Positions 6,977 to 26,923 of a DNA stretch of 64,000 nt are shown here, piece by piece. The stretch comes from an uncultured delta proteobacterium (lineage in GTDB: Bacteria > Desulfobacterota > Desulfobacteria > Desulfobacterales > JAHEIW01). A program made the translations under genes and the position numbers. Position 1 is the first letter of the stretch, and every line of letters begins with the position of its first letter. The notes beneath the pieces were generated by a model, which did no database searches, was not told the origin of the DNA, and saw nothing but the letters and a program-made list of their open reading frames with translations. Where the stretch lies: the NCBI GenBank assembly GCA_963706575.1, contig CAVPNL010000015.1, forward strand, positions 96,001 to 160,000, given 5' to 3'.

Positions 6977-7206
6977 TTGATGCTAAATTGCATCAATAAA
7001 AAATTAAGTGTTTGAAAATAATTAGTTTTTTTATTTGTTATCCTTGATGCTATATGGCATCAAAAAATCTATCAGTATCTCAGAGAGTTATTTTTATTGC
7101 GATGCGAGTTTGCATCAAAGCTACTGTGGCCCTTTTCCCTAAACAAACGTAACTATTTATAATTACATAAAATTTTTTATTAACCCATCATTGGCATGCA
7201 TTTTGT
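6977..7206 (+). promoter_or_regulatory. Sigma54-type promoter with three upstream palindromic enhancer-like sites
   Basis: (T)GATGC-N6-GCATCAA at 6977-6996, 7044-7063 and 7099-7118; TGGCATGCATTTTGT at 7192-7206 (GG-N10-GT, -24/-12 spacing). Confidence 0.7.
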
Positions 7207-7220
7207 TAATTAATTTATGA

Positions 7221-7385
7221 TAGTGCTGTGTCCCAGAAATATTGTCTAAAATATTACTAGGTACTGAGACGTGTTACCCATCCGTCATTCCCGCGCAGGC
7301 GGGAATCCAGGCGTCTTTGAACTGGACTCCCGCTTGGGCGGGAGTGATGATCATTTTGTAACTTATTTGTAGGACACAACACTAG
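7221..7385. mobile_element. Palindromic MITE-like element (copy 2, uninterrupted)
   Basis: Ends tagtgctgtgtcccagaaata / tatttgtaggacacaacactag; core gtcattcccgcgcaggcgggaatccag...ctggactcccgcttgggcgggagtga. Confidence 0.75.
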
Positions 7386-7437
7386 TGGCAAAATTTAAAT
7401 TCTCTTTCCCCCTAATAAACGATTGATAGACTTATAA

Positions 7438-8745
7438 GTGATGAATCAGCAAGGCTCTCGTAAACGCTGGCGGCATTTGGTCATTGGCAACAGTGCGGCA
7501 GCCCTGAACGCGGTTAAAGCCATACGCGAAAACAATTCCACTGACCACATCACATTGGTTTCGGCCGAGAGTCATTATGCCTATTCACCGGTTCTGCTAC
7601 CCTACTATGTTTCCAAAAAAATCAAAAGATCAGCCCTGTTTCTGGCGGATGAAAGCTTTTATCAACAAAATGGGGTTGAGCTGATCCTTGGCAATCCGGC
7701 CACCCGGGTCGATCCGAAAAACCGGCAAGTGGCCCTCGCCAATGACGATGTTTTGGAATACGACAATTTGCTGATTGCAACGGGATCTTCTCCCAAACCG
7801 CTGGGCATACCGGGCGAAGAACTGGCGGGCGTATTCACCTTAAAAACCGTTGACGATGCCGATAAACTGGTCAAGGCCGCCGCTGGGATGGCGGACATTG
7901 TCATCATCGGGGGAGGTTTGATCGGTTTGCAGGCGGCAAACGCCTTATACGCGGCGGGCCGCAATATCAGGATTGTTATCGGCTCCAGACAACCGCTTTC
8001 GCGCAACGTGGACCCTTCCTGTGCTGAAAATGTCTGCCAGGGTATCCGCGAATGCGGGATGTCCATTTTATTTGAAACCCACGCCGTCTCCATTGGAAAA
8101 GCAAAAAACAAATTGAACGTCGAGTTGAGTTCAAATAATACACTCGAGGCCGACGCCGTTATTATCGGAAAGGGCGTCAGCGCCAATACGCAGCTCGTTG
8201 CCGAAAGTGAAATTGAAGTCAACTACGGCATCCTCGTTGATGAAACCATGCGCACCAATGTGCCGAATGTTTTTGCCGCCGGCGATGTCGCCGAGGGGTT
8301 AAATTTAATTACCGGGCAAAGACAGGTGATTGCCACCTGGCCGAATGCCTGTTCACAGGGCCGAACCGCCGGGATCAACATGGCGGGCGGTGTGGACAAA
8401 AACGAGGGCCTCAGCAGCAACATCTGCGGTTTTTTAGGAAGTACGGTTGCATCGGTGGGAATTACGAATCCTGAAAATGGTGATTTTGAAGAGGTGGTCT
8501 TCCAAGATCCGGCCAAAGGGCGGTATCGAAAACTGGTCTGGAATAAAAACGACGAACTGGTGGGTGCCGTCTTAATGGGCAAGGTCGCAGATATCGGGGT
8601 TATCACTAGCCTAATCAGGAACCGGGTCAAGGTCCCCAGAGAAAAGCGGGATCAAATGGCTCGATCGACCATAAAATATGGGGATTACTTCTCACAAAAG
8701 ACTGGTCGCTTGAATATCGCGGCAAGATGCCGCTCCCACAATTGA
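7438..8745 (+). CDS. NAD(P)/FAD-dependent oxidoreductase (AorC-like)
   Basis: VIGNSAAA, YDNLLIATGS, IIGGGLIG, TNVPNVFAAGDVAE. Confidence 0.9.
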   Translation: MMNQQGSRKRWRHLVIGNSAAALNAVKAIRENNSTDHITLVSAESHYAYSPVLLPYYVSKKIKRSALFLADESFYQQNGVELILGNPATRVDPKNRQVALANDDVLEYDNLLIATGSSPKPLGIPGEELAGVFTLKTVDDADKLVKAAAGMADIVIIGGGLIGLQAANALYAAGRNIRIVIGSRQPLSRNVDPSCAENVCQGIRECGMSILFETHAVSIGKAKNKLNVELSSNNTLEADAVIIGKGVSANTQLVAESEIEVNYGILVDETMRTNVPNVFAAGDVAEGLNLITGQRQVIATWPNACSQGRTAGINMAGGVDKNEGLSSNICGFLGSTVASVGITNPENGDFEEVVFQDPAKGRYRKLVWNKNDELVGAVLMGKVADIGVITSLIRNRVKVPREKRDQMARSTIKYGDYFSQKTGRLNIAARCRSHN

Positions 8746-8835
8746 CAAGGCGATGTGTGGATCCCGCTAAACGGGAGAATAATTGCCGTGATCTACCATC
8801 TTTGAGATGGGTCTAATAAAAATGGGAAGTTTGAG

Positions 8836-9084
8836 ATGATCTCGATAACGGTTAAAATCCACCACGGCTTCAAAAAATTATTGCCGGCCGGTATGAAGAC
8901 GGGCGACCCTTTTGATATTTCCCTTGAGGACAATACGGCCGTCGGGGATTTGCTGCGGGACAAAATCAAACTTCCAGTGGATATGCCAAAATTAATTTTA
9001 ATAAATGGCCTGCACAGCAAAGAAAAGCAAGCTCTGAAAGATGGAGATAAAGTCAGTTTATTCATGCCGATGGCGGGGGGCTGA
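8836..9084 (+). CDS. MoaD/ThiS family sulfur carrier
   Basis: Ubiquitin-like size; C-terminus LKDGDKVSLFMPMAGG. Confidence 0.9.
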   Translation: MISITVKIHHGFKKLLPAGMKTGDPFDISLEDNTAVGDLLRDKIKLPVDMPKLILINGLHSKEKQALKDGDKVSLFMPMAGG

Positions 9085-9269
9085 GTGCAGATTTGTTCTC
9101 GGAACAACACCAGTCAGCTGTAGGCACGAATCGTAATAATCTCAACCTCGTATTAATTTTCATGCATATTTTAGAGTTAATTTTAGATAGAAGTGGTTTC
9201 AAAACCTCAGATCAGGTTTCCCGCTTTAACGCGGGATTGCACATCTTTTTAAGCAAATTAAGGTGTGCA

Positions 9270-9426
9270 TCAAGGCAAGGCGTCACGCGAATTGAAAGTC
9301 GTGTGTCCGAGCGTACACGTTAGTACGTGAGTATTTTAATTCGTGGGACAACGCAGCCATTGGACCTTTTGAGCCCCTTAACTAATCTTTCAATTAGATG
9401 CGAAATCCCGCTTCATTAAGCGGGGA
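9270..9426 (+). repeat. Intergenic repeat with gagcgtac-N-gtacgtgag core (degenerate copy)
   Basis: caaggcg...gagcgtacacgttagtacgtgagtatttt...caacgcagccattg, shared with copies at 40764, 59074, 61009 and 63627. Confidence 0.7.
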
Positions 9427-9468
9427 GATGGGGTTTTGAAGCCGCTTCTTAAAGAAAGGAGTGTAACT

Positions 9469-9948
9469 ATGTCCAAGGCCCTTATCGTCAATCTGGATAA
9501 ATGCACGGGCTGCAGATATTGCGAATTGGCCTGCTCGTTCGCACATCACGGGGAATACAATCCCGCCAAATCCAATATTCAGGTCAGTGTTTTTACCGAA
9601 GATGCCTTCTATGTCCCCATGGTCTGTACCCAGTGCGACCGACCCTTCTGTGGTGAAGTTTGTCCAACCGGAGCCATCTCTGCCGATGAAGTCAACGGCG
9701 CTTATGTTGTCCTGGTGGATCCGGAAAAGTGTGTCGGGTGCAAGATGTGCACCATGGCCTGTCCGTTTGGCGCGATTACCTACCAGAGTTCGGGGAAGGT
9801 ACAAAAATGTGATTTGTGCGGCGGCAAACCCGAATGTGTGGCGTTTTGCGTCCCCAATGCGCTGGAATTTAAGGACCCGGAATTAACAAATGTCCGTAAA
9901 TCCAGGGCATACGCCAAAAAAATCTACCATCAGAAGGAGGAAGACTAA
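9469..9948 (+). CDS. 4Fe-4S dicluster protein (AOR electron-transfer subunit)
   Basis: CTGCRYCELAC, CTQCDRPFCGEVCP, CVGCKMCTMACP, KCDLCGGKPECVAFC; RBS aagga. Confidence 0.92.
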   Translation: MSKALIVNLDKCTGCRYCELACSFAHHGEYNPAKSNIQVSVFTEDAFYVPMVCTQCDRPFCGEVCPTGAISADEVNGAYVVLVDPEKCVGCKMCTMACPFGAITYQSSGKVQKCDLCGGKPECVAFCVPNALEFKDPELTNVRKSRAYAKKIYHQKEED

Positions 9949-11789
9949 TGAATGCATGGGTGGGTAAGATTTTAAGAGTCAATTTAACGAAGGGGGCTAC
10001 ATCGGTTGAGGAACTAAACGAGGAATTTGCCCGTGATTATATCGGCGGACGGGGCTTGGGTGTCAAATACCTTTACGATGAGATCGATCCCAAAGTCGAT
10101 CCGTTGGATCCCGGTAATAAGCTCATCATGGTGACCGGCCCAATGACCGGCACGGGTGCCCTGGCGGGTGGCCGCTATACCGCTGTCACGAAATCCCCTT
10201 TAACCGGAGCGATAGCCAATTCGAATTCAGGAGGATATTTTGGTGCTGAATTGAAATATGCGGGTTACGACATGATCATATTGGAGGGCAAGGCCAAAAC
10301 GCCGGTTTATCTGTGGATCGAAAATGACAGCATCGAAATTCGCAAGGCCAAGCATCTCTGGGGCATGGAAACGCAGCAGACAACCGAAACAATTCTATCC
10401 GAAACGGATGTGGAAGCCAAAGTGGCCTGTATCGGACCGGCGGGTGAAAATCTGGTTAAATTTGCATGCATTATGAACGATAACGGCAGGGCCGCCGGAC
10501 GATCGGGTGTCGGAGCTGTGATGGGATCCAAGAATCTCAAAGCCGTGGCGGTCAGAGGGACCCAGGGCGTTACGGTGGCCGACCCTGAAGGTTTCAGAGC
10601 CGCCGTATTGGATGCCATCAAAGAGTTTCATGATCCGTATATGTCAGAAGTTCTGGCACAGTACGGCACTTCGGATGTGGTCGAGTTTTCAAACGAGGTT
10701 GGTCTGCTTCCCACCCGCAATTATCAGACCGGCGTATTTGAGGGGGCATCGAAGATCGGCGGTACGGTGATTGCGAAATACAATCTCAGAGGTGCCGCCA
10801 AAACCAAGGCCTGCTTCGGGTGCCCCCTGGCCTGCGGCCGGGTGACCCGTGTCGCGGATGGAGAATTTAAAGGCGCGGGCGAAGGGCCGGAATATGAAAC
10901 ATTGGGCGCCTTCGGCTCTGCCTGCGGGGTCGACAACCCCGAAGCCGTCATCAAAGCCAATTATATTTGCAACCGCATGGGCATGGATACAATTTCGACC
11001 GGTGTTACGATTGCCTGCGCTATGGAACTTTTTGAAAAGGGTTATTTACCTGAGAAAAAGGTGGGGCGCAAACTGGCTTTCGGTGATGGCCAGGCGGTGG
11101 TTGAATTAGTCGAAAAGGCCGCCCGGCGGGAGGGTTTTGGCAATGAGATCGCCGAAGGATCCTATCGGCTGGCAACAAAGTATGGCCATCCCGAGTTATC
11201 CATGTCCGCCAAGAAGCTGGAATTTCCCAGTTATGACCCCAGAGGCGGGCAGGGTTTTGCCCTGGCATATGCGACCTCAAACCGGGGCGGGTGTCACATC
11301 CGCAACGAAGTTCATTGTGTCGAATTTTTTGGCATCTCGCTGATGGGTATTGTCAAAACAGGTGATAATTTAGATCGCTTTAGCACCAAAGGCAAACCGG
11401 CGGTTGCCAAAAAGATTCAGGATTTTTATACGATGATCGACTCATCCGGAATCTGCAATTTTATCATCATTGGTTCACCGGATGCCAATGTCTTTATCAA
11501 TCTCATGGAAAAAGGGACAGGCTTAGATTTCGGCGGATTGAACGGTTTTCTGAAAACGGGCGAACGGATCTATAATATCGAAAGGCTTTTTAATCTCAAG
11601 GCCGGCCTGACGGCTAAAGATGACACCTTACCGAAGCGTATGTTAACAGAACCGATGCCCGAAGGTCCCGGCAAAGGCGAGGTGGTTCATTTAAGTGAGA
11701 TGCTGCCGGAGTATTACAAGCTTCGGGGGTGGACCGTAAAGGGGGTCCCCTCTGCAAAGAAGCTGGCGGAACTCGGAATCGCTACTTAA
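9948..11789 (+). CDS. aor: Aldehyde ferredoxin oxidoreductase (W-AOR family) 1
   Basis: GKILRVNLT, KSPLTG, AAGRSGVGAVMGSKNLKA, CFGCPLAC, EGPEYET, YDPR, NRGGCH. Confidence 0.95.
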   Translation: MNAWVGKILRVNLTKGATSVEELNEEFARDYIGGRGLGVKYLYDEIDPKVDPLDPGNKLIMVTGPMTGTGALAGGRYTAVTKSPLTGAIANSNSGGYFGAELKYAGYDMIILEGKAKTPVYLWIENDSIEIRKAKHLWGMETQQTTETILSETDVEAKVACIGPAGENLVKFACIMNDNGRAAGRSGVGAVMGSKNLKAVAVRGTQGVTVADPEGFRAAVLDAIKEFHDPYMSEVLAQYGTSDVVEFSNEVGLLPTRNYQTGVFEGASKIGGTVIAKYNLRGAAKTKACFGCPLACGRVTRVADGEFKGAGEGPEYETLGAFGSACGVDNPEAVIKANYICNRMGMDTISTGVTIACAMELFEKGYLPEKKVGRKLAFGDGQAVVELVEKAARREGFGNEIAEGSYRLATKYGHPELSMSAKKLEFPSYDPRGGQGFALAYATSNRGGCHIRNEVHCVEFFGISLMGIVKTGDNLDRFSTKGKPAVAKKIQDFYTMIDSSGICNFIIIGSPDANVFINLMEKGTGLDFGGLNGFLKTGERIYNIERLFNLKAGLTAKDDTLPKRMLTEPMPEGPGKGEVVHLSEMLPEYYKLRGWTVKGVPSAKKLAELGIAT

Positions 11790-12041: not shown

Positions 12042-13280
12042 ATGAAAACTAAACGTTTTTTTATAATTGCTGGTTTAATGGTTTCAATTTTATTCAGCCT
12101 CCAGGCAATGGCGGCGGAACCGATTAAAGTGGGCGCACCCAATCCGCTTACTGGGGCCTACGCTTCTGACGGCAATGTGATGTTGAACGCGACGGAAATG
12201 GCCGTGGCCGATATTAATGCCAAGGGCGGGCTATTGGGGCGAAAACTCGAAGTTGTCTCTTTTGATGTCGAAGATATGCTGCCTGAAAAACTGATTTCGG
12301 CTGCAGAAGTCCTGGTCGTAAAGGAAAAAGTTGATATGGTCGTCACCGCCTGCAATGCCATGGGTCCGGACGTACAGGCTTTTGGCAAGTACGATGTCCC
12401 TTACATCAACAATAATGCCTCCACTGTTGCCACGGGAATGGTGAAAGATGATCCCGCTACCTATTTTAATGTCTTCCAGGCCGGTGATAACGAGCCGGCT
12501 TATGTTTCAAAAACCATCGAAACATTCATGGGCTTTGGTTACAAACTGCCCAACAAGAAGATGGCCGTGGTTTACAGTGAATACGATTGGGATAAAAAGA
12601 TCGCAGGGGCCTTAAAAGAACAGGCCAAGCAATACGGTCTCGATCTGGTCATATATGAACAGACGCCCGCCGCCACCAATGCCTGGGGCCCCATCCTGAC
12701 AAAAATTCGGGCCCATGACCCCGCTCTGGTATTTTTGAGCATCTACGCCCCTGAAAGCATTGCCGCTTTTGCAGATCAATACCTGCAAAACCCGACGAAT
12801 TCTCTGGTGGACCTGGGCTATGCCGTCTCCATCCCCTCATTTATGGAGATTGCCAGCAAATACGCCGATGGGTTTACCGGCTATGCGGCCCTGGCAATTC
12901 CACCCGAAATGACGGCAGAAGGTCAGGCCCTGGAAGCCAGATACAAAAAAATGTTTAAAACCGATTCCATGCCATTCAGCGTTGTACCCTGTGTATATGA
13001 CGGCGTAATGGCCTGGGCGGCAGCGGTTGAAAAGGTCGGTGATGTAAAAGATTACAAAGCCGTATCGGTCACCATGAAGACCAATCGCTATAAAGGCATC
13101 GGCGGGGTATACGACTTTAATAATCCGCGCCAGGCTGCCAGAGCTGGGGACGATCTGTTACCGGTCAATCTTTTTCAAGCCCAAAACGGCAAACTCGTGC
13201 TGCGCAACCTGGGTAGTAAGACAATATCGCCATATCAGCTGCCGCCTTGGTTAAAAGAACCGTGGCCAAAGGCTCAGTAA
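12042..13280 (+). CDS. ABC transporter substrate-binding protein (LivJ/HAAT family)
   Basis: Signal peptide; PIKVGAPNPLTG, INAKGGLLGRKLE. Confidence 0.9.
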   Translation: MKTKRFFIIAGLMVSILFSLQAMAAEPIKVGAPNPLTGAYASDGNVMLNATEMAVADINAKGGLLGRKLEVVSFDVEDMLPEKLISAAEVLVVKEKVDMVVTACNAMGPDVQAFGKYDVPYINNNASTVATGMVKDDPATYFNVFQAGDNEPAYVSKTIETFMGFGYKLPNKKMAVVYSEYDWDKKIAGALKEQAKQYGLDLVIYEQTPAATNAWGPILTKIRAHDPALVFLSIYAPESIAAFADQYLQNPTNSLVDLGYAVSIPSFMEIASKYADGFTGYAALAIPPEMTAEGQALEARYKKMFKTDSMPFSVVPCVYDGVMAWAAAVEKVGDVKDYKAVSVTMKTNRYKGIGGVYDFNNPRQAARAGDDLLPVNLFQAQNGKLVLRNLGSKTISPYQLPPWLKEPWPKAQ

Positions 13281-14044
13281 TGGCAAGCAGCGCGAATTTT
13301 AATCCCAAAGATGGACAGATGGGGGCGCAAGCCCCCATCCTTCAAGTCCGGAATCTCTCCAAGGCCTTTGGGGCCATGATGGCCGTCAACAATTTAAGCT
13401 TTGAGATTCCCGCCGGCGAAGTATTTGGTATTGCCGGACCCAATGGCGCCGGAAAAACGACGGTCTTCAACCTGATCACCGGGTTTTTACAGGGGACCGG
13501 CGAAGTGCGCTTCGAAGATAAAAATGTGACGAATCTCAAACCGTATCAGATTTGTCACCGGGGAATCGCACGGACGCTTCAAATTCCGCAGGTCTTCACA
13601 ACCCTTGATGTGTTTAACAATGTCAGATTTGGCGCCCATTTCGGCAACAAACGGCTAACGGATGGGAATGAAGCGGAAATTATCCACCGGGCCTTAGATT
13701 TCGTTGGATTGCAGGATGACAAAACAGCAATCGCCGAGAATATGGACCTGTTTCATAAGAAGCTGATTATGATCGCAGCGGCGCTTGCGACCCAGCCACG
13801 CTTATTGTTACTCGATGAGCCCATCGGCGGTCTGAGCCCGACGGAGATCGATCCGCTCATGGAACTCATCCGCAAGATCAACCAGGAATTGAACATCACC
13901 GTCATTATTATCGAGCATTTAATGAAGGTGCTTAAAAAGCTGTCGCATCGCCTGATGATCCTGCACTACGGGGAAGAGATTCGAACCGGACCCCCGGCGG
14001 AAGTCATGGAAGATGAAAAAGTAAAAGAAGTTTATCTGGGTTAG
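13280..14044 (+). CDS. livG: ABC ATPase, LivG-like
   Basis: GPNGAGKTT, GIARTLQ, LLLLDEP. Confidence 0.88.
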   Translation: MASSANFNPKDGQMGAQAPILQVRNLSKAFGAMMAVNNLSFEIPAGEVFGIAGPNGAGKTTVFNLITGFLQGTGEVRFEDKNVTNLKPYQICHRGIARTLQIPQVFTTLDVFNNVRFGAHFGNKRLTDGNEAEIIHRALDFVGLQDDKTAIAENMDLFHKKLIMIAAALATQPRLLLLDEPIGGLSPTEIDPLMELIRKINQELNITVIIIEHLMKVLKKLSHRLMILHYGEEIRTGPPAEVMEDEKVKEVYLG

Positions 14045-14054
14045 GAGAACCGTT

Positions 14055-14759
14055 TTGCTCGAATTAAAGCACATCAATACCTATTACGGCCAATTTCATG
14101 CCATCAGAGACGTTTCCTTTAAAATTAATCAAGGCGATTTATTCCTGGTTGTGGGGCCCAACGGGCATGGAAAGAGCACTTTGCTGAAAACGATATGCGG
14201 CTTGCTGCGGACGGCTTCAGGTCAAATCGTTTTTAACTCGACCGAAATTACCCGATTGGCGACGGATCAAATCGTGGCGATGGGCCTGGTTTATGTGGCC
14301 GAGGAACGCCATCTCTTTCCCCAGATGACCGTTCTCGACAACTTGAAGCTCGGTGCCTATAACATGCAGGCCCGGGCCAAAGAACGCGAAACCCTCGAAT
14401 ACGTCTTTCATTTATTTCCGCGTTTAAGCGAATTTCAAAATAGATATGCAGCAACCCTGAGTGGTGGTGAAGCAAGGATGTTAACCCTGGGCCGGGGCAT
14501 CATGTCCTGTGCCAAGCTGTTGGCGATCGATGAGCCGTCCTTTGGGTTAGCCCCCATTCTCAGAAATGACGTATTTGATAAGATCAATGAGATCAATTCC
14601 AATGGGTTGACCGTTCTTCTGGTAGAGCAAAACGTTAATCAGGTAGTGGACTTCGCTGACAGAATCTGCCTGATCGAAGACGGATGTATCGTCTTCGACG
14701 GCCCCAGAGAAGAAGCCCTGCTGAACGAACATGTTAAAAATGTATTTCTAGGTGGATAA
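14055..14759 (+). CDS. livF: ABC ATPase, LivF-like
   Basis: GPNGHGKST, LSGGE, IDEPSFGL, LLVEQN. Confidence 0.88.
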   Translation: MLELKHINTYYGQFHAIRDVSFKINQGDLFLVVGPNGHGKSTLLKTICGLLRTASGQIVFNSTEITRLATDQIVAMGLVYVAEERHLFPQMTVLDNLKLGAYNMQARAKERETLEYVFHLFPRLSEFQNRYAATLSGGEARMLTLGRGIMSCAKLLAIDEPSFGLAPILRNDVFDKINEINSNGLTVLLVEQNVNQVVDFADRICLIEDGCIVFDGPREEALLNEHVKNVFLGG

Positions 14760-14764
14760 TATAA

Positions 14765-15646
14765 ATGAATATTTGGGTTCAACAGATCATTCAAGTGATT
14801 ATTAGTGGGATTGTGACGGCTTCGGCATATGCAATTATGGGTATCGGATTATCGGTCATCTATGGCATATCACGCGTATTTAATTTTGCATACGGGTCGT
14901 TTTTTACCTGGGGGGCCTATTTTGCCTGGTTTTTATTCGCCACATTTTCGTGGATGAATTATCCGCTGGTTTTTTTGATTGTGGTGCCCGGTATGTTTTT
15001 TCTAGGAATGGGTACCGAACGCGTCGTGGTCCGGTCCCTGCGCTGGCGCAAAAACTGGCAGGTGACTACCATGATGGTTACGCTGGGGCTGGCTTTTTTT
15101 ATGGACAATCTGGCGATGGTCGTTTTCGGCGGATTTGCCAAACCGCTGCCCCCTCTTTTTCGCGGCGCCATAAACCCTTTTGGTTTCACCTTAAGCGTGC
15201 AGGATTTGGCCATGCTGATTATCGCCATATTGGTGATCGTCGTCTTTGGCTTATTTCTGTCCAGAACCCGGGTGGGAAGATGCATGCAAGCCATCTCTCA
15301 GGATATGACCGGAGCCGAAATCGTCGGAATTCCGATAAAAAAAATATTCAGCTACACCTTCGGATTATCAACCGCGCTGGTGGGAACCGGTGGCATTCTG
15401 CTGGCACCGAGGTATTTCATTACCCCCCACGGCGGCTGGGCACCTTTTTTTCGGGTTTTTGTTATCGTTGCTTTCGGCGGCCTGGGTAGCATTCGGGGAA
15501 CCCTCTATGCGGCATTTATCCTGGCTATTTTTGAGTCCTTTATTTCCTGGGGGCTGGGCGCCACCTGGGTAATGCCTTTCTGGTTTTTGGTCTTCTTGGG
15601 GGTGCTGGCATTTCGACCTTCAGGATTAATGGGAACGTGGGGTTAA
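14765..15646 (+). CDS. livH: ABC permease, LivH-like
   Basis: GLSVIYGISRVFNFAYG, FGGLGS, RPSGLMG. Confidence 0.88.
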   Translation: MNIWVQQIIQVIISGIVTASAYAIMGIGLSVIYGISRVFNFAYGSFFTWGAYFAWFLFATFSWMNYPLVFLIVVPGMFFLGMGTERVVVRSLRWRKNWQVTTMMVTLGLAFFMDNLAMVVFGGFAKPLPPLFRGAINPFGFTLSVQDLAMLIIAILVIVVFGLFLSRTRVGRCMQAISQDMTGAEIVGIPIKKIFSYTFGLSTALVGTGGILLAPRYFITPHGGWAPFFRVFVIVAFGGLGSIRGTLYAAFILAIFESFISWGLGATWVMPFWFLVFLGVLAFRPSGLMGTWG

Positions 15647-15651
15647 GGGGA

Positions 15652-16665
15652 ATGATGAAAATACAAATGCGACAAGAACTGGTCGTCTTTTTGGCCATGT
15701 ACCTCATTTTGCTTTTTTTGCCTGTGTTTCTATACAAGGATGCATATGTCATTGGGATTCTCATCACCTGTATGATCTGGGGGGCGATGGCATCGGTTTG
15801 GAATTTTACCATGGGGTATGCCGGTATCTTCACCTTCGGTCAGTTTGGTTTTTTCGTTGTGGCCGCGTATACCTCCGGCATGGTGACCAAATACCTGGGA
15901 ATATCTCCCTGGCTGGGCATTTTGATAGGTGGATTGATGGCCGCGCTGGTGGGTGTCCTCATCGGCCTGCCGTGTATGAAATTAAAAGGAGCCTACATCG
16001 CTTTAATTACCTTTGCACTGCACCTGGTTGTGGCGCCGATGATAAAAGTGGCCGACCCGCTGGGCACCGGCGGCAGCACCGGCCTGATGTCCATTCCAAG
16101 TTTAAATCTGGGCGCATATACGTTTTCGCGTACCGATCTTATTCCGTGGTATTATACCGCTCTGGTAATATCCTTTTTGGTCCTTTTTGTTGTTTATAAA
16201 ATCATTTTTTCCTCGGTTGGTTTAGGATTTATCGGTCTGCGTGATTCCGAGGACTTTGCCAAAACCCTGGGGATAAATGAATATAAGTACAAACTGCTGG
16301 TATTTGGCCTTTCGGCTTTTTTAACCGGAATCATGGGAGGGTTTTATGCGCATTATGCCGGCATCATATCTCCCCGATTGTTGGGTCTTGATATCTTTCT
16401 TTTGGTGATGCTCATGCTGATTATCGGGGGCATGGGGATATTTCCAGGCGCCTTTTTAGGCGGGTTTATTATTCTTTTCTTAAATGAGTTTTTACGTCCG
16501 TTGGCGGCCTATCGTTTCCTGATTTTTGGTGCGATTGTGATTGTGGCAATTAAACTGATGCCGGAAGGGATTCTGGGCCATCTCAACATTTTCAAGAACC
16601 GAATGGGAAAGCGTTTGCTGGGCAGACCTGCTGAAGCGGAATCGACCAGAGGCCAAAATGTTTAA
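15652..16665 (+). CDS. livM: ABC permease, LivM-like
   Basis: WNFTMGYAG, LKGAYIALIT, IIGGMG, MPEGILG. Confidence 0.88.
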   Translation: MMKIQMRQELVVFLAMYLILLFLPVFLYKDAYVIGILITCMIWGAMASVWNFTMGYAGIFTFGQFGFFVVAAYTSGMVTKYLGISPWLGILIGGLMAALVGVLIGLPCMKLKGAYIALITFALHLVVAPMIKVADPLGTGGSTGLMSIPSLNLGAYTFSRTDLIPWYYTALVISFLVLFVVYKIIFSSVGLGFIGLRDSEDFAKTLGINEYKYKLLVFGLSAFLTGIMGGFYAHYAGIISPRLLGLDIFLLVMLMLIIGGMGIFPGAFLGGFIILFLNEFLRPLAAYRFLIFGAIVIVAIKLMPEGILGHLNIFKNRMGKRLLGRPAEAESTRGQNV

Positions 16666-16794
16666 ACGATGGCGCCCTACCCTCCGCCTCTGGTGATGGC
16701 GAACAGGAGTTTAGGACCAGGGTGAATCATGGCGCAAAGAAAAGTTTAAGCAGTATTTCAACCTTTAAAACATTTGCAGAACAGGAGAAAATTT

Positions 16795-18084: not shown

Positions 18085-18390
18085 TTGGCAAACTTTGCTG
18101 AGATCAAACAGAATCTGGATCCGTCTTTTCATTATATTATTTTCGAAAAGACCGTAAACCCGGCTGACGGACCGGATTTCAGCGAGATCAGCGCTTTTAT
18201 CATGCGCTATCAGAAGGCCGTGATCGAACAGGAGGTGCATCGCGATCCAACCGGAAAGCATCTTTTGCTCGTTGTTAAATTAAACGCGGATGAAGTGGAT
18301 GAGATTTCACAGGAAATCCTAAATCTTACGTTCGCGGAGGATATCACGGTTTATGTTTACGGCCGACGCCCAAGCATTGAAACCGCTTGA
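18085..18390 (+). CDS. Hypothetical protein (101 aa)
   Basis: Strong RBS gaggagg and TTG start; fills the gap between gabT and mtbB. Confidence 0.7.
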   Translation: MANFAEIKQNLDPSFHYIIFEKTVNPADGPDFSEISAFIMRYQKAVIEQEVHRDPTGKHLLLVVKLNADEVDEISQEILNLTFAEDITVYVYGRRPSIETA

Positions 18391-18429: not shown

Positions 18430-19816
18430 ATGGGAAAAATTTTTACCCGTTACGGTGACGGGACGCCCACTGAAATGAGCGAAAGTGAGCTCAGGGCGGA
18501 TCTGGAGGCCGGCACCGCGGACGCAGCGGATCGCGGCAAAATACCGCCGTTATCCGAAGATGAGCTAAACCATCTATTCGATATTTTTAGCTCCCCCTAT
18601 AAATTTATCAGCGTGGAGCCCGGGCAGGAAATCGTTTTGACCTATGATGGCGCTCACGTGAAAATGCGGCGCCACGGAATCAATGTCGAGCGAATTCAGG
18701 GCCTGCAGATTTATGAAAAGATCATGGGTGCCGACACATTGGAACTCTGTCATGTTGACTATAGTTTCAAACCCATCAAGCCCATGATTACCTTTGAACA
18801 GCCGGTCATGGAACAGGCCCTTTTGGTCACCCATGCACCGATGTTTTACGGCGCCATGCCCAATCTTGGCCTTTACTCCCAGCCGGACGGTCCCTTCCCA
18901 AATCCGTCCGAGCTGATGCCGGCCGGAAAAATCGAAGAGGCCCAGGAGTCCCATGAGAAATCCGTCGAAGCAGCGGTCAAAGATATCGTTTTTATCGGCT
19001 GCTGCATGATTGAATGCGGGGCCGACGGGATTAACATCGACTCGACGGGCGCGGCCGGCGATGCCGATTTTCTGGCGGCGCTGTTGGCCACCCAGCAGCT
19101 TGAAGGAAAAATACCCGGACACCTGCATTGAGATCGGTATGGCCGGTGAATTTATTCTGGGGATGCATGCCGGCTTGGAATTTGAAGGCACCCGGCTGGC
19201 CGGCCTTTACCCCCACGATCAGGTAAAGCTGGTCGAAAAAGCCGGTGGAACGATCTATGGCCCGGTGGTCAACACCAATACCACCCAGTCCACCCCCTGG
19301 AATGTCGCCCGGGTGGTTACGTTCACCAAGGCGGTTGGCGAAGTCGCCAAAATCCCCATTCATGCCAATATGGGCATGGGTGTCGGTGCCGTCCCCACCT
19401 GCGATCATCCCCCCATCGATACCGTCTCCAGGGCTTCCAAGGCCATGGTCGAAATTTGCCGATTGGACGGGTTGTAGGTGGGCGTCGGCGATCCCTTCGC
19501 CATGGCGCTTGCTCACGCACACGCTTCGGGCATGGGCGGAATGCGGACCTCCGGAGATCTGGTCGCCCGCATGCAAATGACCCGCGGCATGAAAATTCAA
19601 GAAGCCAAAGAGTATGTCGCCAATAAACTAAATTTATCGATTCCCGAAATAACCGACCCGGTCATTATGACCGAGGTCAGACAGGACCTGAAGCTGGGTT
19701 GCATGTCGCCCCAGGCCGGTGATGCTCACGGAATCGAGGCCAAGTTCCGAATTGCCGAGGTTCTGGGTATCGAGATCAATTGTGTCAACAAATTTAAAAA
19801 CAAAGTTGCGTTTTAA
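18430..19816 (+). CDS. mtbB: Dimethylamine:corrinoid methyltransferase (MtbB family), pyrrolysine at TAG 19475-19477; +1 frameshift at ~19100
   Basis: TRYGDG, DYSFKPIKP, YGAMPNLGLY, IDSTGAAGDADF, EIGMAGEFILGMH, HANMGMGVG, and LDGL-TAG-VGVGDP, matching the MtbB DGI-O-IGVGDP motif; continues RTSGDLVARMQ. Confidence 0.95.
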
Positions 19817-19848: not shown

Positions 19849-20503
19849 ATGTTAGATGAAAAGATCATTGAAGAAGCAATGCAACTGATTATTCAACAGA
19901 ACAAGGAAGCGGCAGCCAAACTGGCCCAAAAGGTCATATCTGAAGGCGTCTCTCCCATTGAATTATTGAACGAAGGATTTATTCCCGGGATCAATAAGGT
20001 TGGCGATTTGTTCGGGCGCGGCGAGCTGTTTCTGCCGGAATTGATTAAAGCGGCCGATACCATGAAAACGGTTACCGATATCGTCAACGAAGCGATCGCA
20101 GATGGCCCGGACAAACCGGAGGCCCAGGCGAAGGTTGTTATCGCCACGGTCAAAGGTGATGTTCACGATATCGGCAAAGCGATCGTGGTCTCATTGATGC
20201 GAGCCAACGGATTTACCGTTTATGATCTGGGGCGCGATGTCGAAACGGATAAGATCATCGAAGAAGCGCAAAAAGGTGGATGCAGACATCATCGGCACCA
20301 GCGCCCTGCTGACGACCACCATGCCCAAGCAGAAAGAGCTTGAAGAAGCGCTCAAAAGCGCCGGCTTGAGGGATCGTTTTAAAACGGTGGTCGGCGGTGC
20401 CCCGGTGACCCCTCGCTGGGCGGCCCGGATCGGTGCCGATGCCTATGCCGAAGATGCTCAGGACGGTGTTTTGAAAGTAAAAGAGCTCCTCGCACAGTCG
20501 TAG
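19849..20503 (+). CDS. mtbC: Cognate corrinoid protein (MtbC-like); +1 frameshift at ~20270-20277
   Basis: LFLPELI, TVKGDVHDIGK (B12 His), DLGRDV, then GTSALLTTTM and VGGAPVT in the shifted frame. Confidence 0.9.
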
Positions 20504-20594
20504 GCGGCTACCGACTTTAAATCCTTGTTGACATTTATCGGATTCCATTGTCGGCGTGCCCATTACTGATGCGCCGACAATGACAGGGGGAAAC

Positions 20595-22361
20595 ATGCAC
20601 GGATTTTACAACCGAATATTAAAAATCGATTTAAGTCAGAAGAATTTTTCAATCGAAGCCCTCGGCGATGAAATCCCGCAAAGCCTGCTGGGCGGCAAAG
20701 GATTGTGTTCGCATCTTTTATTCAATCTCAATCCTCCGGGAGTCGATCCATTATCCCCGGAAAACTGTTTGATATTTGCCACCGGACCCAGCGCGGGAAG
20801 CACCATCTGGGGGTCGTGCCGCTACGGGGTGTTTACCAAGTCGCCCCAGACCGGGTTTTATTCGGAATCTTATTCCGGTGGAACGGTACCAGAGGCCATC
20901 GACAGCACCGGCTTTGATGCCATTGTCATTCAGGGAAAATGTGCCGACCGCACCGTCCTGGCGATTCACCCGGATGGTGTTGATTTCCATGATGCCGGCG
21001 ATATCTGGGGAATGGAAACATACGCCGCCGAAGATGCCGTAATGGAACGTTTCGGCAAATCCGATGATCGTTATCGGCGAAAAGGCGCGGTGGTGATCGG
21101 ACCCGCCGGTGAAAAGCTGGTCTGCTTTGCAGTGATTGAAAACAACTATTGGCGTTCGGCGGGAAGAACCGGCGTCGGCACGGTCATGGGCGCCAAACAG
21201 ATCAAAGGCATTTTGTTTCAGGGCGATCAGAAACGCTCGCTTTATGATGAAAAAGCGGTGCGCGAATTTTCAAAGAATCTGTCGGCAGAAGCCAAAGACA
21301 GCCCGGCCACCAATGCCTATAAATCGCTGGGAACGCCTATGATGGTTAAACTGATAAACACCGCCGGTGCGTTTCCGACGCGTTACTGGTCGGAAGGCGT
21401 ATATCAAGATTGGGAAAAGATCAGCGCCGATGCCTTGAATGAAAGATGCGACGTCAAGCCGCATGCCTGTCTCAAGTGTTTTATGGCCTGCGGGCGCATG
21501 AGCACCATCAAGGAGGGTCGTCATAGCGGTCTTAAGATCGAGGGCCCGGAGTATGAAACCATTTATGCCTTCGGGGGACTGTGCCTGATCGACAGCATCG
21601 AGGAAATCGCATATCTCAATGATGTTTGCGATCGCTTAGGCGTCGATACGATCACGGCCGGCAATTTATGTGCCTTTACGATTGAAGCCGCCCGGCAGGG
21701 CCGCATCGATTATAAAATCGATTACGGAGAGGTGGACTCCATTGCGGAATTACTTCATAAAATCGCCTTTAGAGAAGACATTGGTGATATACTGGCCGGC
21801 GGAATCAAGCAGGCGGCGAAACAATGGCAACTGGAAGACATAGCGGTTCACGTCAAGGGTCTGGAGCCGGCGGGATATGATCCGCGCGCGCTCAAAGGAA
21901 TGGGTCTCAGCTACGCCACCTCGGATCGCGGCGCGTGTCATTTAAGAGCGACGTTTTATAAACCGGAAATCAGTGGTATGATCCCGCCGGAGCAAATTGA
22001 AGGCAAAGCCGAGCTTTTTTTGGACTTTGAGGATCGCTTAACCCTTTTCGATACGATGATTCTTTGCCGGTTTTATCGTGACTTTTACGACTGGGATCAG
22101 CTGGCAAAGATGATTTACGCGGTGACCGGCATCGATGAAGGCAAAGAAGGGCTGCAGCAAAGGGCCCGACAAATTGCCGACCTCATCCGGCGTTTCAACT
22201 TGCGGGAAGGATTAAAGCCCGAAGATGACCGGCTGCCGAAGGTCTTTCACCGCAAACTGGAAAATTCCGGGCAGGTCATTACGGAAGAAGAGCTCGAAAC
22301 CATGCTGCAGGATTATTACCGGCTGCATGGCTGGGATCAAAACGGTATCCCTGCCAGCTGA
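20595..22361 (+). CDS. aor: Aldehyde ferredoxin oxidoreductase family 2
   Basis: GFYNRILKIDL, KSPQTG, SAGRTGVG, CLKCFMAC, EGPEYET, YDPR, DRGACH. Confidence 0.95.
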   Translation: MHGFYNRILKIDLSQKNFSIEALGDEIPQSLLGGKGLCSHLLFNLNPPGVDPLSPENCLIFATGPSAGSTIWGSCRYGVFTKSPQTGFYSESYSGGTVPEAIDSTGFDAIVIQGKCADRTVLAIHPDGVDFHDAGDIWGMETYAAEDAVMERFGKSDDRYRRKGAVVIGPAGEKLVCFAVIENNYWRSAGRTGVGTVMGAKQIKGILFQGDQKRSLYDEKAVREFSKNLSAEAKDSPATNAYKSLGTPMMVKLINTAGAFPTRYWSEGVYQDWEKISADALNERCDVKPHACLKCFMACGRMSTIKEGRHSGLKIEGPEYETIYAFGGLCLIDSIEEIAYLNDVCDRLGVDTITAGNLCAFTIEAARQGRIDYKIDYGEVDSIAELLHKIAFREDIGDILAGGIKQAAKQWQLEDIAVHVKGLEPAGYDPRALKGMGLSYATSDRGACHLRATFYKPEISGMIPPEQIEGKAELFLDFEDRLTLFDTMILCRFYRDFYDWDQLAKMIYAVTGIDEGKEGLQQRARQIADLIRRFNLREGLKPEDDRLPKVFHRKLENSGQVITEEELETMLQDYYRLHGWDQNGIPAS

Positions 22362-22431
22362 AATCATCGCAAGAATTAAAAACTGCTTCGGATCAATGAC
22401 CAATTGCAATGTCGTCACCATTTGATTCTGC

Positions 22432-22505
22432 GGGGGGTGGATCGCAATGTGATCGTGTGGACTCTAAATCCACATAGGCGGGTGCAACTCCCGTACTCCC
22501 CGCCA
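22432..22505 (+). tRNA. pylT: tRNA-Pyl (anticodon CUA, 22464-22466)
   Basis: GGGGGGT acceptor pairing with ACTCCCC-GCCA; D-stem GATC/GATC; 6-bp anticodon stem TGTGGA/TCCACA; loop CTCTAAA; 3-nt variable loop; T-loop lacking TTC; directly upstream of pylSc. Confidence 0.96.
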
Positions 22506-22557
22506 TTCAATTTTTATCAGGGTATAAATCCCTTATTCGGATCAAAAGAGGGTCTTG

Positions 22558-24524: not shown

Positions 24525-25675
24525 TCGCCGTTGCCGGCGGAAATCTTCAGGGCGTAGAAACGGCGTACCTATCGCAAAAGGCGGGCTGGGACGTTCTCGT
24601 AATGGATCGCAAACCGATGGTACCGGCAACGGGGCTATGCGATACTTTTGTTCAGCTGGATATGACCTCAGAAAAAGATTTAGCGCAGGCCCTAAGTGGT
24701 GTTGATTTGGTCATTCCCGCGCTGGAGAACGATGCTGCCCTGGCCTGTTTAGGCCGGGTGACCCGCAACAATGGGATTCCATTTGCTTTTGATCCTGCCG
24801 CTTTTGCCATATCCTCCTCCAAAATACAATCTGAGCAGCTCTTTAAGCAAACCGGTGTCCCGACTCCCGCCCGTTGGCCAAAATGCAAATTCCCGGTCGT
24901 CGCCAAACCTGACCGGGGAAGCGGCAGCCAGGGCGTAACGGTATTTAATAATATTACCGATCTGCAGAACACCCTAAAACCACCAAACCCGCAATGGCTG
25001 ATACAGGAATTTATCCACGGGCCATCGTATTCTTTAGAAGTCATCGGATCGCCGGGTCACTATACCGTGCCCCAGGTCACCGATTTAGCAATCGATGCGC
25101 AATACGACTGCAAGCGTGTGACCGCACCATCAAGCCTGGCGGGTGAGCTGATCTTAAAATTTGAAGCGCTCTCGCTGGCGCTGGCGGATGCCTTAAACCT
25201 GAACGGCATAATGGATGTGGAAGTCATTTTGTCTGAAGATGAACTAAAGGTGATTGAAATTGATGCGCGCTTACCCAGCCAAACACCGACAACGGTTTAC
25301 TGGTCGACGGGTTTGAATATGGTCCAGTTATTGGGAGACTTTTTTTTAAACCGACAGACTCGCATTCAGCCGAATTCGACTAATGAATATGGCGTGATCT
25401 ATGAACACGTGAGGGTGGCATCAAATCATCTTGAAATTGCCGGCGAACACATCATGTCCGGAACGGATGCCCTTCACGTATACCCGGATTTTTTTGGCGC
25501 AGACGAGGCCATAACGAATTATGCTACGGGCCGCGACGATTGGGTCGCCACATTGATTGTTGTTGAAAAAAATGTGGAAGCCGCCTGGGACAAACGCAAT
25601 CAAATCATTGCGGATATTAAAAAAAGGTTTAAGCTGGAAATTTATCTGGATTCAGTCACGCAAGAAAAAACTTAG
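24518..25675 (+). CDS. pylC: 3-methylornithine--L-lysine ligase (ATP-grasp)
   Basis: GGNLQGVE, GPSYSLEVIG, YDCKRV, EIDARLPSQTPT, GEHIM. Confidence 0.96.
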   Translation: MLVAVAGGNLQGVETAYLSQKAGWDVLVMDRKPMVPATGLCDTFVQLDMTSEKDLAQALSGVDLVIPALENDAALACLGRVTRNNGIPFAFDPAAFAISSSKIQSEQLFKQTGVPTPARWPKCKFPVVAKPDRGSGSQGVTVFNNITDLQNTLKPPNPQWLIQEFIHGPSYSLEVIGSPGHYTVPQVTDLAIDAQYDCKRVTAPSSLAGELILKFEALSLALADALNLNGIMDVEVILSEDELKVIEIDARLPSQTPTTVYWSTGLNMVQLLGDFFLNRQTRIQPNSTNEYGVIYEHVRVASNHLEIAGEHIMSGTDALHVYPDFFGADEAITNYATGRDDWVATLIVVEKNVEAAWDKRNQIIADIKKRFKLEIYLDSVTQEKT

Positions 25676-25685
25676 GAGACCACCT

Positions 25686-26537
25686 GTGACCCGACTGATA
25701 AGCGCTGACATCAGCGATATCGCCGCCAATTTGCAAAATTATGACAGGGAATTGGTGGCCAGAACGGGTTATTCCCTGAGCGGTATTGCCTGTCGTGCCG
25801 CTGAAATCGATGAAGCGCAGATCAAGAATTTACTGCCCGAAATTCGGGTGGGAGTCATACCGATCTCCAGCGGCGAAGGGATCATCGGCGGTTTCGGCGA
25901 TGCCGTTTTGAACATTCTTTTCCACATGGGTGCTAACGCCTTTGTAACCCGGACGACGGATGTCGCCGGAATTGTCGAATCCTATGAGAAAAAAGCAGAT
26001 ATGATAATGCTGGCCGATGATGAGCGCTTTGTGGCATTGCATATTCGAAGTCGCTCAATCGCTGACAATGCGGTTTGCACCGGCAACGCCTTTGCAACCG
26101 GATTGCGATTGATGGCCGGCAGCCTGAAAGGGCAAAAGGTGCTGGTCATCGGCTGTGGTCGGGTGGGGCGCAGCGTAACGGAGGCTTTGATCCTTATGGG
26201 TGCCCGGGTTTCAGTTTACGATGTTAAGATTGAACCGTTAAAGGAATGGGTCAAAACGGTAGATCAAACAGCTGATTCGAAGATTCAGATAGTCCAAAAA
26301 TTGGACTCCGCCTTGCAGCGTCACCAATTTATCATCGATGCTTCGCCGGCCCGCAACATTATCCATGCGCATCATATTACACCGGATACATATGTTAGCG
26401 CGCCCGGGGTTCCGTGCGGATTGGACGCCGAAGCAAAAGAGAGATTATCCAGTCGATTTTTGCACGATCCGCTTCAGCTAGGCGTCGCAACGATGCTGGT
26501 CAGTGCGGCCAAAGGCCACTGCGAGCGGCAACAATAA
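25686..26537 (+). CDS. pylD: Pyrrolysine synthase (3-methylornithyl-N6-L-lysine dehydrogenase)
   Basis: TRL N-terminus, VIPISSGEGIIGGF, TDVAGI, ADDERFVA, GCGRVG, LHDPLQLGVATM; RBS aggag. Confidence 0.95.
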   Translation: MTRLISADISDIAANLQNYDRELVARTGYSLSGIACRAAEIDEAQIKNLLPEIRVGVIPISSGEGIIGGFGDAVLNILFHMGANAFVTRTTDVAGIVESYEKKADMIMLADDERFVALHIRSRSIADNAVCTGNAFATGLRLMAGSLKGQKVLVIGCGRVGRSVTEALILMGARVSVYDVKIEPLKEWVKTVDQTADSKIQIVQKLDSALQRHQFIIDASPARNIIHAHHITPDTYVSAPGVPCGLDAEAKERLSSRFLHDPLQLGVATMLVSAAKGHCERQQ

Positions 26538-26560
26538 CAAAGAGATTCTCATCTATTTTT

Positions 26561-26923
26561 ATGCAAAATTCAGGTAAAAAAGCCGCGAAACGATTCTATC
26601 GCAAGCGCGTCGATCTTTTTCGGCTCATTGATAAAATAAAATTGTGGCCGTCGCGCAAAGGTATTTTGCATGGCATCCGGACCATTCAAAAGATAGGGGA
26701 CCAGGCCCAGATTACCACGCATTGTAACAAAACATTTCTGGCAAACGATTCCCGCAACAGCCGGGCCGCTCGCTGGTTAAGAAATAAATGGTTTAAGGAT
26801 GTCTGCCCGATCTGCCGGATTCCGGATTGGAAGCTGGAAAAATATTCATCAACCCAGTTCAAGCGCCATTACGGATCGGCTCTGCTGTCGGAGGATGAGT
26901 TGGATAAAAAAAACGGCGATTAA
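26561..26923 (+). CDS. pylSn: Pyrrolysyl-tRNA synthetase N-terminal (tRNA-binding) domain
   Basis: KIKLWPSRKGILHGIR, ITTHC, DSRNSRAARWLRNKW, CRIPDWKLEKYS. Confidence 0.96.
   Translation: MQNSGKKAAKRFYRKRVDLFRLIDKIKLWPSRKGILHGIRTIQKIGDQAQITTHCNKTFLANDSRNSRAARWLRNKWFKDVCPICRIPDWKLEKYSSTQFKRHYGSALLSEDELDKKNGD

Follow-up and report, generated by a model that had tools for sequence, protein, structure and literature searches.

A candidate pyrrolysine-dependent route for larger N-methyl amines, suggested by the linkage of an MtbB-family methyltransferase with a GABA-type aminotransferase and an aldehyde oxidoreductase in Desulfobacterales

Which amine is demethylated by a pyrrolysine (Pyl) methyltransferase of the MtbB family when its gene stands between an aminotransferase gene of the 4-aminobutyrate (GABA) type and the gene of an aldehyde oxidoreductase? 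The question arises in a window of 64,000 nt (positions 96,001-160,000 of contig CAVPNL010000015.1, GCA_963706575.1), whose source genome is labelled G000; G001-G024 are the compared genomes, L numbers the compared loci, and C3 and C15 contigs of G000. One block of its plus strand carries, in this order, AorC-MoaD-AorA-AOR1, a Liv-type ATP-binding cassette (ABC) importer, GabT, a 101-aa open reading frame (ORF), mtbB, a corrinoid gene, AOR2 and pylT-Sc-B-C-D-Sn, where AOR denotes aldehyde:ferredoxin oxidoreductase. A preliminary description of this DNA had read the block as a linked pathway in which a secondary amine R-NH-CH3, larger than dimethylamine, is demethylated, transaminated and then oxidised. 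We find that the pairing of MtbB with aminotransferase and AOR genes recurs in several separate MtbB clades and three phyla and that the linkage is not local chance; on the comparison of loci, the conserved core is GabT-MtbB-MtbC-AOR2. This gene context argues for a substrate of MtbB other or broader than dimethylamine. The core region consists of the following features.

16774..18057, plus strand: GabT, a class-III aminotransferase of the 4-aminobutyrate:2-oxoglutarate type (TIGR00700)
18085..18390, plus strand: conserved 101-aa ORF of no family (no Pfam or NCBIfam match)
18430..19816, plus strand: mtbB, Pyl methyltransferase of the MtbB family (Dimeth_Pyl), its frame broken by one extra base at 19099
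19475..19574, plus strand: RNA element of the PYLIS_2 type that begins at the Pyl codon (Rfam RF02509, 65.2 bits against a gathering score of 36)
19849..20503, plus strand: mtbC-like gene of the cognate corrinoid protein (B12-binding_2 and B12-binding over two frames), with an extra base at about 20268
20556..22361, plus strand: AOR2, a divergent enzyme of the AOR family (AFOR_N, AFOR_C)

Genes were called with Pfam and NCBIfam profiles, ARAGORN for tRNA, Rfam for RNA and sequence comparison with the PDB. GabT reaches 570.7 bits on the equivalog TIGR00700, whose cut-off is 506.65, and its PDB matches are true GABA aminotransferases (4atp, 3.7e-131; E. coli 1sf2, 5.2e-127). The stretches AYHGRT, EPVQGEGGF, ADEIQSG, VAKS, GGTYGGNP and GNIIRIL align with the solved enzyme 4atp, and among them presumably stand the residues that bind pyridoxal phosphate or the substrate. 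The methyltransferase gene is read in two frames, 18430-19131 (profile positions 5-234) and then, in the +1 frame, 19010-19816 (228-463), which together cover PF09505 over its full length (6e-80 and 8.6e-110); its orthologues are open frames of 470-473 aa with one TAG. The Pyl codon TAG lies at 19475-19477, in a column where 79 of 80 homologues have TAG as well. The only row without it is an MtbB homologue of a metagenome-assembled genome (MAG) of Clostridia (L151:10001-11377), with Leu at this position and a long branch. The corrinoid gene, which adjoins the methyltransferase gene, is likewise split (19849-20343 and 20222-20503) and encodes both B12 domains; its N-terminal part matches TIGR02370 (2.5e-40), and the orthologue in G007 is intact with 217 aa. 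The probable start of AOR2 is at 20595, as judged from an alignment with AOR1 and the G007 ORF. The enzyme is 33% identical to AOR1 and matches 9mqx (9.7e-111), 1aor (3.9e-94) and the formaldehyde:ferredoxin oxidoreductase 1b25 (6.4e-81) in the PDB. Relatives that are 61-68% identical adjoin MtbC in other families, and by this comparison AOR2 is a conserved partner of the GabT-MtbB-MtbC module. The 101-aa ORF is 78-88% identical in four loci of the same genus and does not separate GabT from mtbB in loci further removed; its matches in the protein atlas are all below 0.9 and unnamed.

How far does this linkage extend? In the same genus, G007 matches the block in synteny over its full length, from AorC to pylSn, and G015 does so over the part that its sequence contains, from AorA to AOR2 (identities of 80-97% over both genomes). 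A short contig of G014 carries the end of GabT, the 101-aa ORF, mtbB, mtbC and the start of AOR2, and G005 (contig C4; L027/L028) keeps AorCDAB-GabT-orf101-mtbB-AOR2 with pylSc, pylC and pylD and is without liv, mtbC and pylB. In five further genomes of the family (G006, G011, G022, G023 and G024) GabT (62-67% identical) stands directly upstream of mtbB (MtbB 72-74%), and no AOR was found in the examined GabT-mtbB stretches of these five. A non-Pyl MttB, a Pyl-MttB and a corrinoid protein precede GabT in G006, G022 and G024, accompanied in G006 by a pterin-binding methyltransferase; the same non-Pyl MttB, Pyl-MttB and corrinoid set lies ahead of GabT up to the contig end in G019, and in both G001 and G019 contig ends part the GabT piece from the mtbB piece. 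In G023 (L052:6872-10067), BMC and EutN shell genes and an RnfC-like gene occur a few kb upstream of GabT-mtbB.

Outside the family, the core GabT-MtbB-MtbC-AOR2 is present in two isolates, Desulfocicer vacuolatum DSM 3385 and Desulforhopalus singaporensis DSM 12130, in a Desulfamplus MAG and in four uncultured Desulfobacterium MAGs, with proteins about 61-74% identical to those of the window (MtbB 66-74%). Both isolates have a sigma-54 regulator just upstream of the module. In D. singaporensis a methyltetrahydrofolate:corrinoid methyltransferase lies directly upstream, and a second corrinoid protein, a second methyltetrahydrofolate methyltransferase and a BCCT transporter lie downstream. Loci of other MtbB clades have other partners: a Desulfobacula mtbB locus with a class-III aminotransferase 32% and an AOR2 57% identical to the window's, a Desulfosporosinus locus with LivHMGF and AOR2 (52%), the order AorA-AOR1-AorC-MtbB in L118, and the Dehalococcoidales locus L141 with an aminotransferase (42%), LivFGMH and a binding protein (41-64%) and AorC-AorA-AOR1 (43-62%). 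In the Dehalococcoidales loci L141 and L135, LivF is 64-66% and AOR1 62% identical to the window's proteins beside MtbB in another phylum, a likeness that suggests transfer of the gene set between phyla.

A wider scan, with one genome per species and one query, gave 68 mtbB loci (57 bacterial, 11 archaeal), which are relatives fetched with that single query, so that the counts overstate independence. Among the 57 bacterial loci, a class-III aminotransferase gene occurs within 700 nt of mtbB in 18 and within 3 kb in 21, an AOR gene within 8 kb in 21, and both in 14. By the same measure, none of the 11 archaeal loci has an aminotransferase or an AOR (neither in 11/11). G000 (5.67 Mb) holds about 11 class-III aminotransferase and 17 AOR paralogues, from which we calculate a chance adjacency of about 1-5%. 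A quick IQ-TREE phylogeny of 80 MtbB rows, with one duplicate dropped, puts the archaeal rows at the base, and on it the partner labels cluster. The orthologues of the window gene fall with the Desulfocicer and Desulforhopalus group in a clade of 17 rows, ten of which have both partners, two only the aminotransferase (on short contigs), two only the AOR and three neither. Thus the search for mtbB with gabT and AOR proposed in the preliminary description bears out the linkage across genera, families and phyla; wide conservation holds for the GabT-MtbB-MtbC-AOR2 core, while the linkage of AorCDAB and Liv is narrow.

These outer parts of the block, which the proposed route also draws on, are as follows.

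7438..8745, plus strand: AorC-like FAD/NAD(P) oxidoreductase (Pyr_redox_2 7.7e-57, Rubredoxin_C; best PDB match 8c0z chain E, 1.9e-48)
8836..9084, plus strand: MoaD/ThiS-like small protein, AorD-like (ThiS 25.6 bits against a cut-off of 22.5)
9436..9948, plus strand: AorA-like poly-ferredoxin, 4Fe-4S (Fer4 families; best PDB match 8c0z chain C, 3.5e-40)
9948..11789, plus strand: AOR1, catalytic subunit of a canonical AOR, predicted to be a tungsten enzyme (AFOR_N, AFOR_C)
12042..13280, plus strand: periplasmic binding protein of a HAAT/Liv-type ABC importer (Peripla_BP_6 7.7e-43)
13247..16665, plus strand: livG, livF, livH and livM, two ATPases and two permeases (ABC_tran twice, BCA_ABC_TP_C, BPD_transp_2 twice)
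22432..22505, plus strand: tRNA-Pyl with anticodon CUA (ARAGORN)
22555-23400, 23397-24524, 24518-25675, 25557-26537 and 26414-26923, plus strand: pylSc, pylB, pylC, pylD and pylSn, given as longest ORFs

The region 7438-26923 is uninterrupted by real minus-strand genes, the minus-strand ORFs being shadows of genes with strong homology. All the genes that the preliminary description had listed are present on the plus strand in the order it gave (Pfam, NCBIfam, ARAGORN for tRNA-Pyl, Rfam for PYLIS_2), and its account of content, order and strand stands; its start of the block at 6977 falls in non-coding DNA, the first gene beginning at 7438, and its view of mtbB and the corrinoid gene as intact does not hold in this assembly, as discussed below. 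AOR1 matches 9mqx (1.2e-205), 1aor (5e-193) and 8c0z chain A (2.6e-176). The catalytic, Fe-S and FAD subunits of an AorABC-type enzyme, corresponding to chains A, C and E of 8c0z, appear to be encoded together, with a MoaD-like gene that is 82-83% identical in G007 and G005; the AorC-like protein is the putative electron-transfer subunit of AOR1, and formation of an AorABC complex is predicted. 8c0z is the tungsten aldehyde oxidoreductase AorABC of Aromatoleum aromaticum; the window differs from it in the order C-D-A-B and in having AOR2 as a separate, divergent enzyme without subunit genes of its own. All five parts of the importer, namely the binding protein, both permeases and both ATPases, are encoded in a single cluster. 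The nearest PDB entry to the binding protein is 3h5l (3.6e-40), deposited as a putative branched-chain amino acid ABC transporter; the protein is far from LivJ (about 1e-7 only) and scores far below the NCBIfam cut-offs of both the LivJ-type and the urea-type models. The bacterial pyl cassette is complete (tRNA-Pyl, PylSc, PylB, PylC, PylD and PylSn), with 328.7 bits on TIGR02367, 485.9 on TIGR03910, 427 on TIGR03909, 252.9 on TIGR03911 and 124.7 on TIGR03912, all above the NCBIfam cut-offs; for pylD and pylSn the true start is internal to the longest ORF.

What route could these genes encode? We propose, at about even chances, that the substrate of MtbB is an N-methyl omega-amino acid, with 4-methylaminobutyrate as the likeliest, and that the GABA so formed is converted to succinic semialdehyde and succinate. 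In this mechanism the Liv-type ABC system would import an N-methylated amine larger than dimethylamine, and the Pyl enzyme MtbB, with pyrrolysine supplied by the adjacent pyl cassette, would move the N-methyl group onto the Co(I) of the corrinoid protein MtbC. The methyl group would then pass from MtbC to tetrahydrofolate through a pterin-binding methyltransferase. A homologue of such an enzyme (76%) is found at C15:31037-31831, 80 kb upstream and beside another corrinoid gene, and in other genomes it stands directly beside the module. GabT would transaminate the demethylated primary amine to an aldehyde, which AOR2 and/or the AorABC-type AOR1 would oxidise to the acid with reduction of ferredoxin or NAD; for 4-methylaminobutyrate the successive compounds would be GABA, succinic semialdehyde and succinate. 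The leading place of 4-methylaminobutyrate follows from GabT being a GABA aminotransferase both by score and by alignment; N-methyl-beta-alanine and N-methyl-5-aminovalerate are alternative candidates. Where a non-Pyl MttB and a Pyl-MttB flank the module, the chain may start at gamma-butyrobetaine; these non-Pyl MttB neighbours match TIGR02369 only and gave no substrate-specific NCBIfam match.

Four genomes of the same genus in which no MtbB was found (G003, G004, G012 and G021) have a GabT orthologue that is 80-83% identical, with Liv-type genes adjoining it and no AOR there; G004 and G012 carry a full but different set of a substrate-binding protein and livHMGF beside GabT. This arrangement fits an imported omega-amino acid as the substrate of GabT. 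Bra/LIV-type systems import GABA, and with such uptake and the GABA shunt of GabT and GabD the window shares a GABA-type enzyme beside a HAAT-family ABC importer; it has an AOR-family enzyme in the place expected of an NAD(P)-dependent succinic semialdehyde dehydrogenase. The route through AOR2 presumes activity of the AOR family on succinic semialdehyde, for which our literature searches found no source. What the sequences show is the identity of the genes, the Pyl codon and the recurrence of the linkage; we infer the substrate, the direction of flow and co-transcription from gene content and order.

Besides the relatedness of the scanned loci, several observations weigh against this route. 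By hidden Markov model the protein is an MtbB (191.8 and 300.6 bits on TIGR02368 for its two halves). The preliminary description had suggested a comparison of the active-site pocket with that of Methanosarcina MtbB; at the level of sequence there is no obvious remodelling relative to archaeal MtbB: archaeal rows (n=11) and rows of the module clade (n=22) are fixed for different residues at 11 columns only, and most of these states are common to other bacterial MtbB, so that the differences offer no usable signature of specificity. No solved MtbB structure was found in the PDB, where the best match (E = 0.054) is irrelevant. Neither partner occurs at 29 of the 57 bacterial loci, many of which lie on short contigs, and in the 28 with at least 3 kb on both sides of mtbB an aminotransferase is present in 10 and an AOR in 14. 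Within the 17-row clade itself, L089 and L104 lack both partners although their flanks are long, and GabT is missing from L095 and L096. Linkage of AorCDAB and of the Liv importer to mtbB is confined to a sub-clade of the genus and to L141, and AOR genes are very numerous in G000 (17). Scans of 7000-26990 gave 22 promoter sites against 22.3 in shuffled sequence and 27 terminator sites against 26.3, which is chance level, and hence they are uninformative on operon structure. As regards the larger secondary amine of the preliminary description, synteny and the equivalog score of GabT speak for it and the sequence of MtbB shows no remodelling in its favour.

Some of the same observations would fit an ordinary dimethylamine system, which forms methylamine as in methanogens, with GabT, the AORs and Liv belonging to a separate GABA or amino-acid unit of the same amine-catabolism island. 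Consistent with such an arrangement are the full-length match of MtbB to PF09505 and TIGR02368 with the Pyl codon in its canonical column, the few residue changes specific to the clade, the genomes with Liv-type genes and GabT and no MtbB, and the abundance of MttB, corrinoid and AOR genes on the contig, which forms an island of them. In addition, published Pyl genes of Desulfobacterales are treated as trimethylamine and dimethylamine methyltransferases, as far as the accessible text of the two papers goes (PMC1976440, PMC8318568). However, neither chance nor co-location in an island accounts for an order kept in several families, with GabT immediately before mtbB and AOR2 immediately after mtbC, nor for different aminotransferases beside other MtbB clades in three phyla against 0/11 archaeal loci. 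We consider this explanation rather unlikely. The same gene linkage would be accounted for if dimethylamine were demethylated to methylamine and the GabT-like enzyme transaminated methylamine to formaldehyde, with AOR2 forming formate, in replacement of a missing Pyl-MtmB. The three MtmB homologues of G000 are without an in-frame stop and hence are not Pyl enzymes, and AOR2 is about as close to formaldehyde:ferredoxin oxidoreductase 1b25 as to 1aor. However, GabT lies above the cut-off of the GABA aminotransferase equivalog and keeps the stretches of the solved enzyme, and, at 80-83% identity, it stands beside a Liv-type importer in genomes where MtbB was not found. Furthermore, we know of no transamination of methylamine by the GabT family, a point for which the literature was not searched, and we regard this variant as very improbable. 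The demethylation of an N-methyl omega-amino acid is our preferred proposal.

Are the genes functional in this genome? Against four sequences of the same genus (G007, G015, G014 and G005), DNA alignment places an extra base at 19099, which breaks the single frame of mtbB, and against three orthologues (G007, G015 and G014) another at about 20268 in the corrinoid gene; each gene is thus frameshifted in this assembly by a 1-nt insertion. As a check of the assembly, 164 long ORFs from about 264 kb of G007 were compared with the whole G000 genome, and 111 had an orthologue of at least 70% identity (43,715 aa). Five of these 111 are broken, namely mtbB, mtbC, an acyl-CoA synthetase, a gene of the shikimate-dehydrogenase family and a glycosyltransferase; besides mtbB and mtbC, then, 3 of 109 compared genes are broken by a frame change. 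All five breaks are isolated 1-nt insertions in G000, four outside base runs and that of mtbC beside an A-run. Since this uniform 1-nt signature also hits a housekeeping-type gene, the insertions in mtbB and mtbC are probably assembly errors. Programmed +1 frameshifting was considered and is rejected, because the orthologues are without the extra base and the same insertions break unrelated genes.

The frameshifts may instead be real mutations of mtbB, mtbC and a Pyl-mttB in a remnant decaying in this strain, a possibility that we hold doubtful without thinking it remote. The Pyl-mttB lies outside the window (C15:58740-60147) and is split into the +1 frame shortly before its TAG, the adjoining corrinoid gene being intact. 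Thus three Pyl-linked genes are broken against only three of 109 other orthologues, and the 2.1 kb of mtbB and mtbC hold two breaks where about 0.05 would be expected by arithmetic from that background. Furthermore, G005, of the same genus, no longer has mtbC, liv or pylB here, and pylB, pylC and pylD are 65-75% identical to those of G007 against 85-92% for flanking genes. However, isolated 1-nt insertions, a +1 shift in Pyl-mttB and a hit in the shikimate-dehydrogenase-family gene point to consensus error, and neither the pyl genes nor a second Pyl mtbB, on C3, are broken. In metagenome contigs of four public runs on samples other than the source (best word share with the stretch 0.46), relatives that showed an indel at the 19099 or 20268 site always lacked the extra base; contigs of the metatranscriptome run X15 span all 30 bins, and contigs cannot show transcription. 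Decay would bear on the condition of the genes rather than on the pathway and is compatible with any reading of the latter; if the insertions were real, the route would be inactive in this strain, which would count against our proposal here.

Among the closest described systems is that of Methanosarcina MtbB/MtbC (PF09505, TIGR02368; pylTSBCD), which shares with the window the family, the Pyl column, PYLIS_2, an adjacent corrinoid protein and a pyl cassette nearby; the window MtbB is 45-51% identical to the archaeal rows. In archaeal loci MtbB/MtbC stand with MttB/MttC, and no aminotransferase or AOR accompanies them (0/11), whereas the partners in the window are GabT, AOR2, AorABC and the Liv importer, and the methyl group presumably goes to tetrahydrofolate and not to coenzyme M. 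Pyl-MtbB genes of Desulfobacterales have been known since 2007, and the Olavius delta-1 symbiont and the Deltaproteobacteria with dual code expansion are, by the accessible text of these papers, of the same lineage type, with several MtbB/MttB paralogues and a pylT-Sc-B-C-D-Sn cassette (PMC1976440, PMC8318568). The words aminotransferase and aldehyde have no occurrences in the main text of PMC8318568, as far as it is accessible. Our literature searches found no paper linking MtbB to an aminotransferase or AOR, and nothing combining pyrrolysine, butyrobetaine, methyltransferase and aminobutyrate. The MtyB/MtqC/MtqA system of Eubacterium limosum likewise removes an N-methyl group from a GABA-derived amine by way of a corrinoid protein and passes it to tetrahydrofolate, according to the accessible text (PMC8604678). 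MtyB is there a non-Pyl MttB homologue that removes one methyl of gamma-butyrobetaine, whereas the Pyl MtbB of the window, linked to GabT and AOR, would complete the route.

Several observations concern the surroundings of the block and the genome. Upstream lie a GntR/FCD regulator (4603-5307) and a protein of the octopine/nopaline-dehydrogenase family (5398-6492), both absent here in G005; enzymes of the opine dehydrogenase type form or split secondary amines. The ORF at 6507-6698 (63 aa, with a signal peptide), in otherwise non-coding DNA, resembles what is left of a gene for a periplasmic binding protein. The beginning of the window (80-4065) carries a YgeY-like hydrolase fragment, a class-III aminotransferase (908-2092) and, on the minus strand, a non-Pyl MttB homologue (2581-4065) that scores above the TIGR02369 cut-off despite having no TAG. 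A third AOR gene of the window lies on the minus strand in 36586-39695 with its own 4Fe-4S protein and GntR regulator. An IS200-like (Y1) transposase gene occupies 49644-50102. Two dihydropyrimidine-dehydrogenase-like genes, an amidohydrolase, a carbon-nitrogen hydrolase and a uracil/xanthine permease (50310-57475) look like a set for reductive pyrimidine catabolism, which would yield beta-alanine, and an aldehyde dehydrogenase is encoded at 62175-63629. Together with its 17 AOR-family and about 11 class-III aminotransferase paralogues, G000 has 10 non-Pyl MttB, 3 MtmB without an in-frame stop and 11 corrinoid genes, many of them on C15. The second Pyl mtbB (L004:9695-13292 = C3:351694-355291; 468 aa, about 60% identical) adjoins an arylmalonate-decarboxylase-like gene, a creatinase/M24 peptidase and 2-hydroxyglutaryl-CoA-dehydratase-like genes, with no adjacent corrinoid gene; as a guess, its substrate may be another secondary amine such as sarcosine.

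To our knowledge, pyrrolysine functions only in mono-, di- and trimethylamine methyltransferases. More broadly, and tentatively, at somewhat less than even chances, we suggest that bacterial Pyl enzymes of the MtbB family and the neighbouring Pyl-MttB are substrate-diversified demethylases of secondary and tertiary amines. Added to these, non-Pyl MttB, an aminotransferase of the GABA type and a dedicated AOR would enable anaerobes to strip betaines such as gamma-butyrobetaine of all their methyl groups and burn the skeleton through GABA and succinic semialdehyde to succinate, and the aminotransferases of other clades would mark further substrates. In the accessible text of the MtyB work, the fate of 4-dimethylaminobutyrate, at which demethylation by E. 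limosum stops, is stated to be unknown, and E. limosum grows on neither 4-dimethylaminobutyrate nor 4-methylaminobutyrate (PMC8604678). We regard the conserved module as a well-supported genomic hypothesis, put forward from sequence comparison, and as two cultured strains, D. vacuolatum DSM 3385 and D. singaporensis DSM 12130, carry it, it is directly testable. If true, the MtbB-GabT-AOR module would extend Pyl chemistry to larger N-methyl amines, would offer an answer to what becomes of 4-dimethylaminobutyrate and 4-methylaminobutyrate, which arise by demethylation of gamma-butyrobetaine, under anaerobic conditions, a question stated as open in the accessible part of PMC8604678, and would help to explain the presence of up to a dozen MtbB paralogues in Desulfobacterales.

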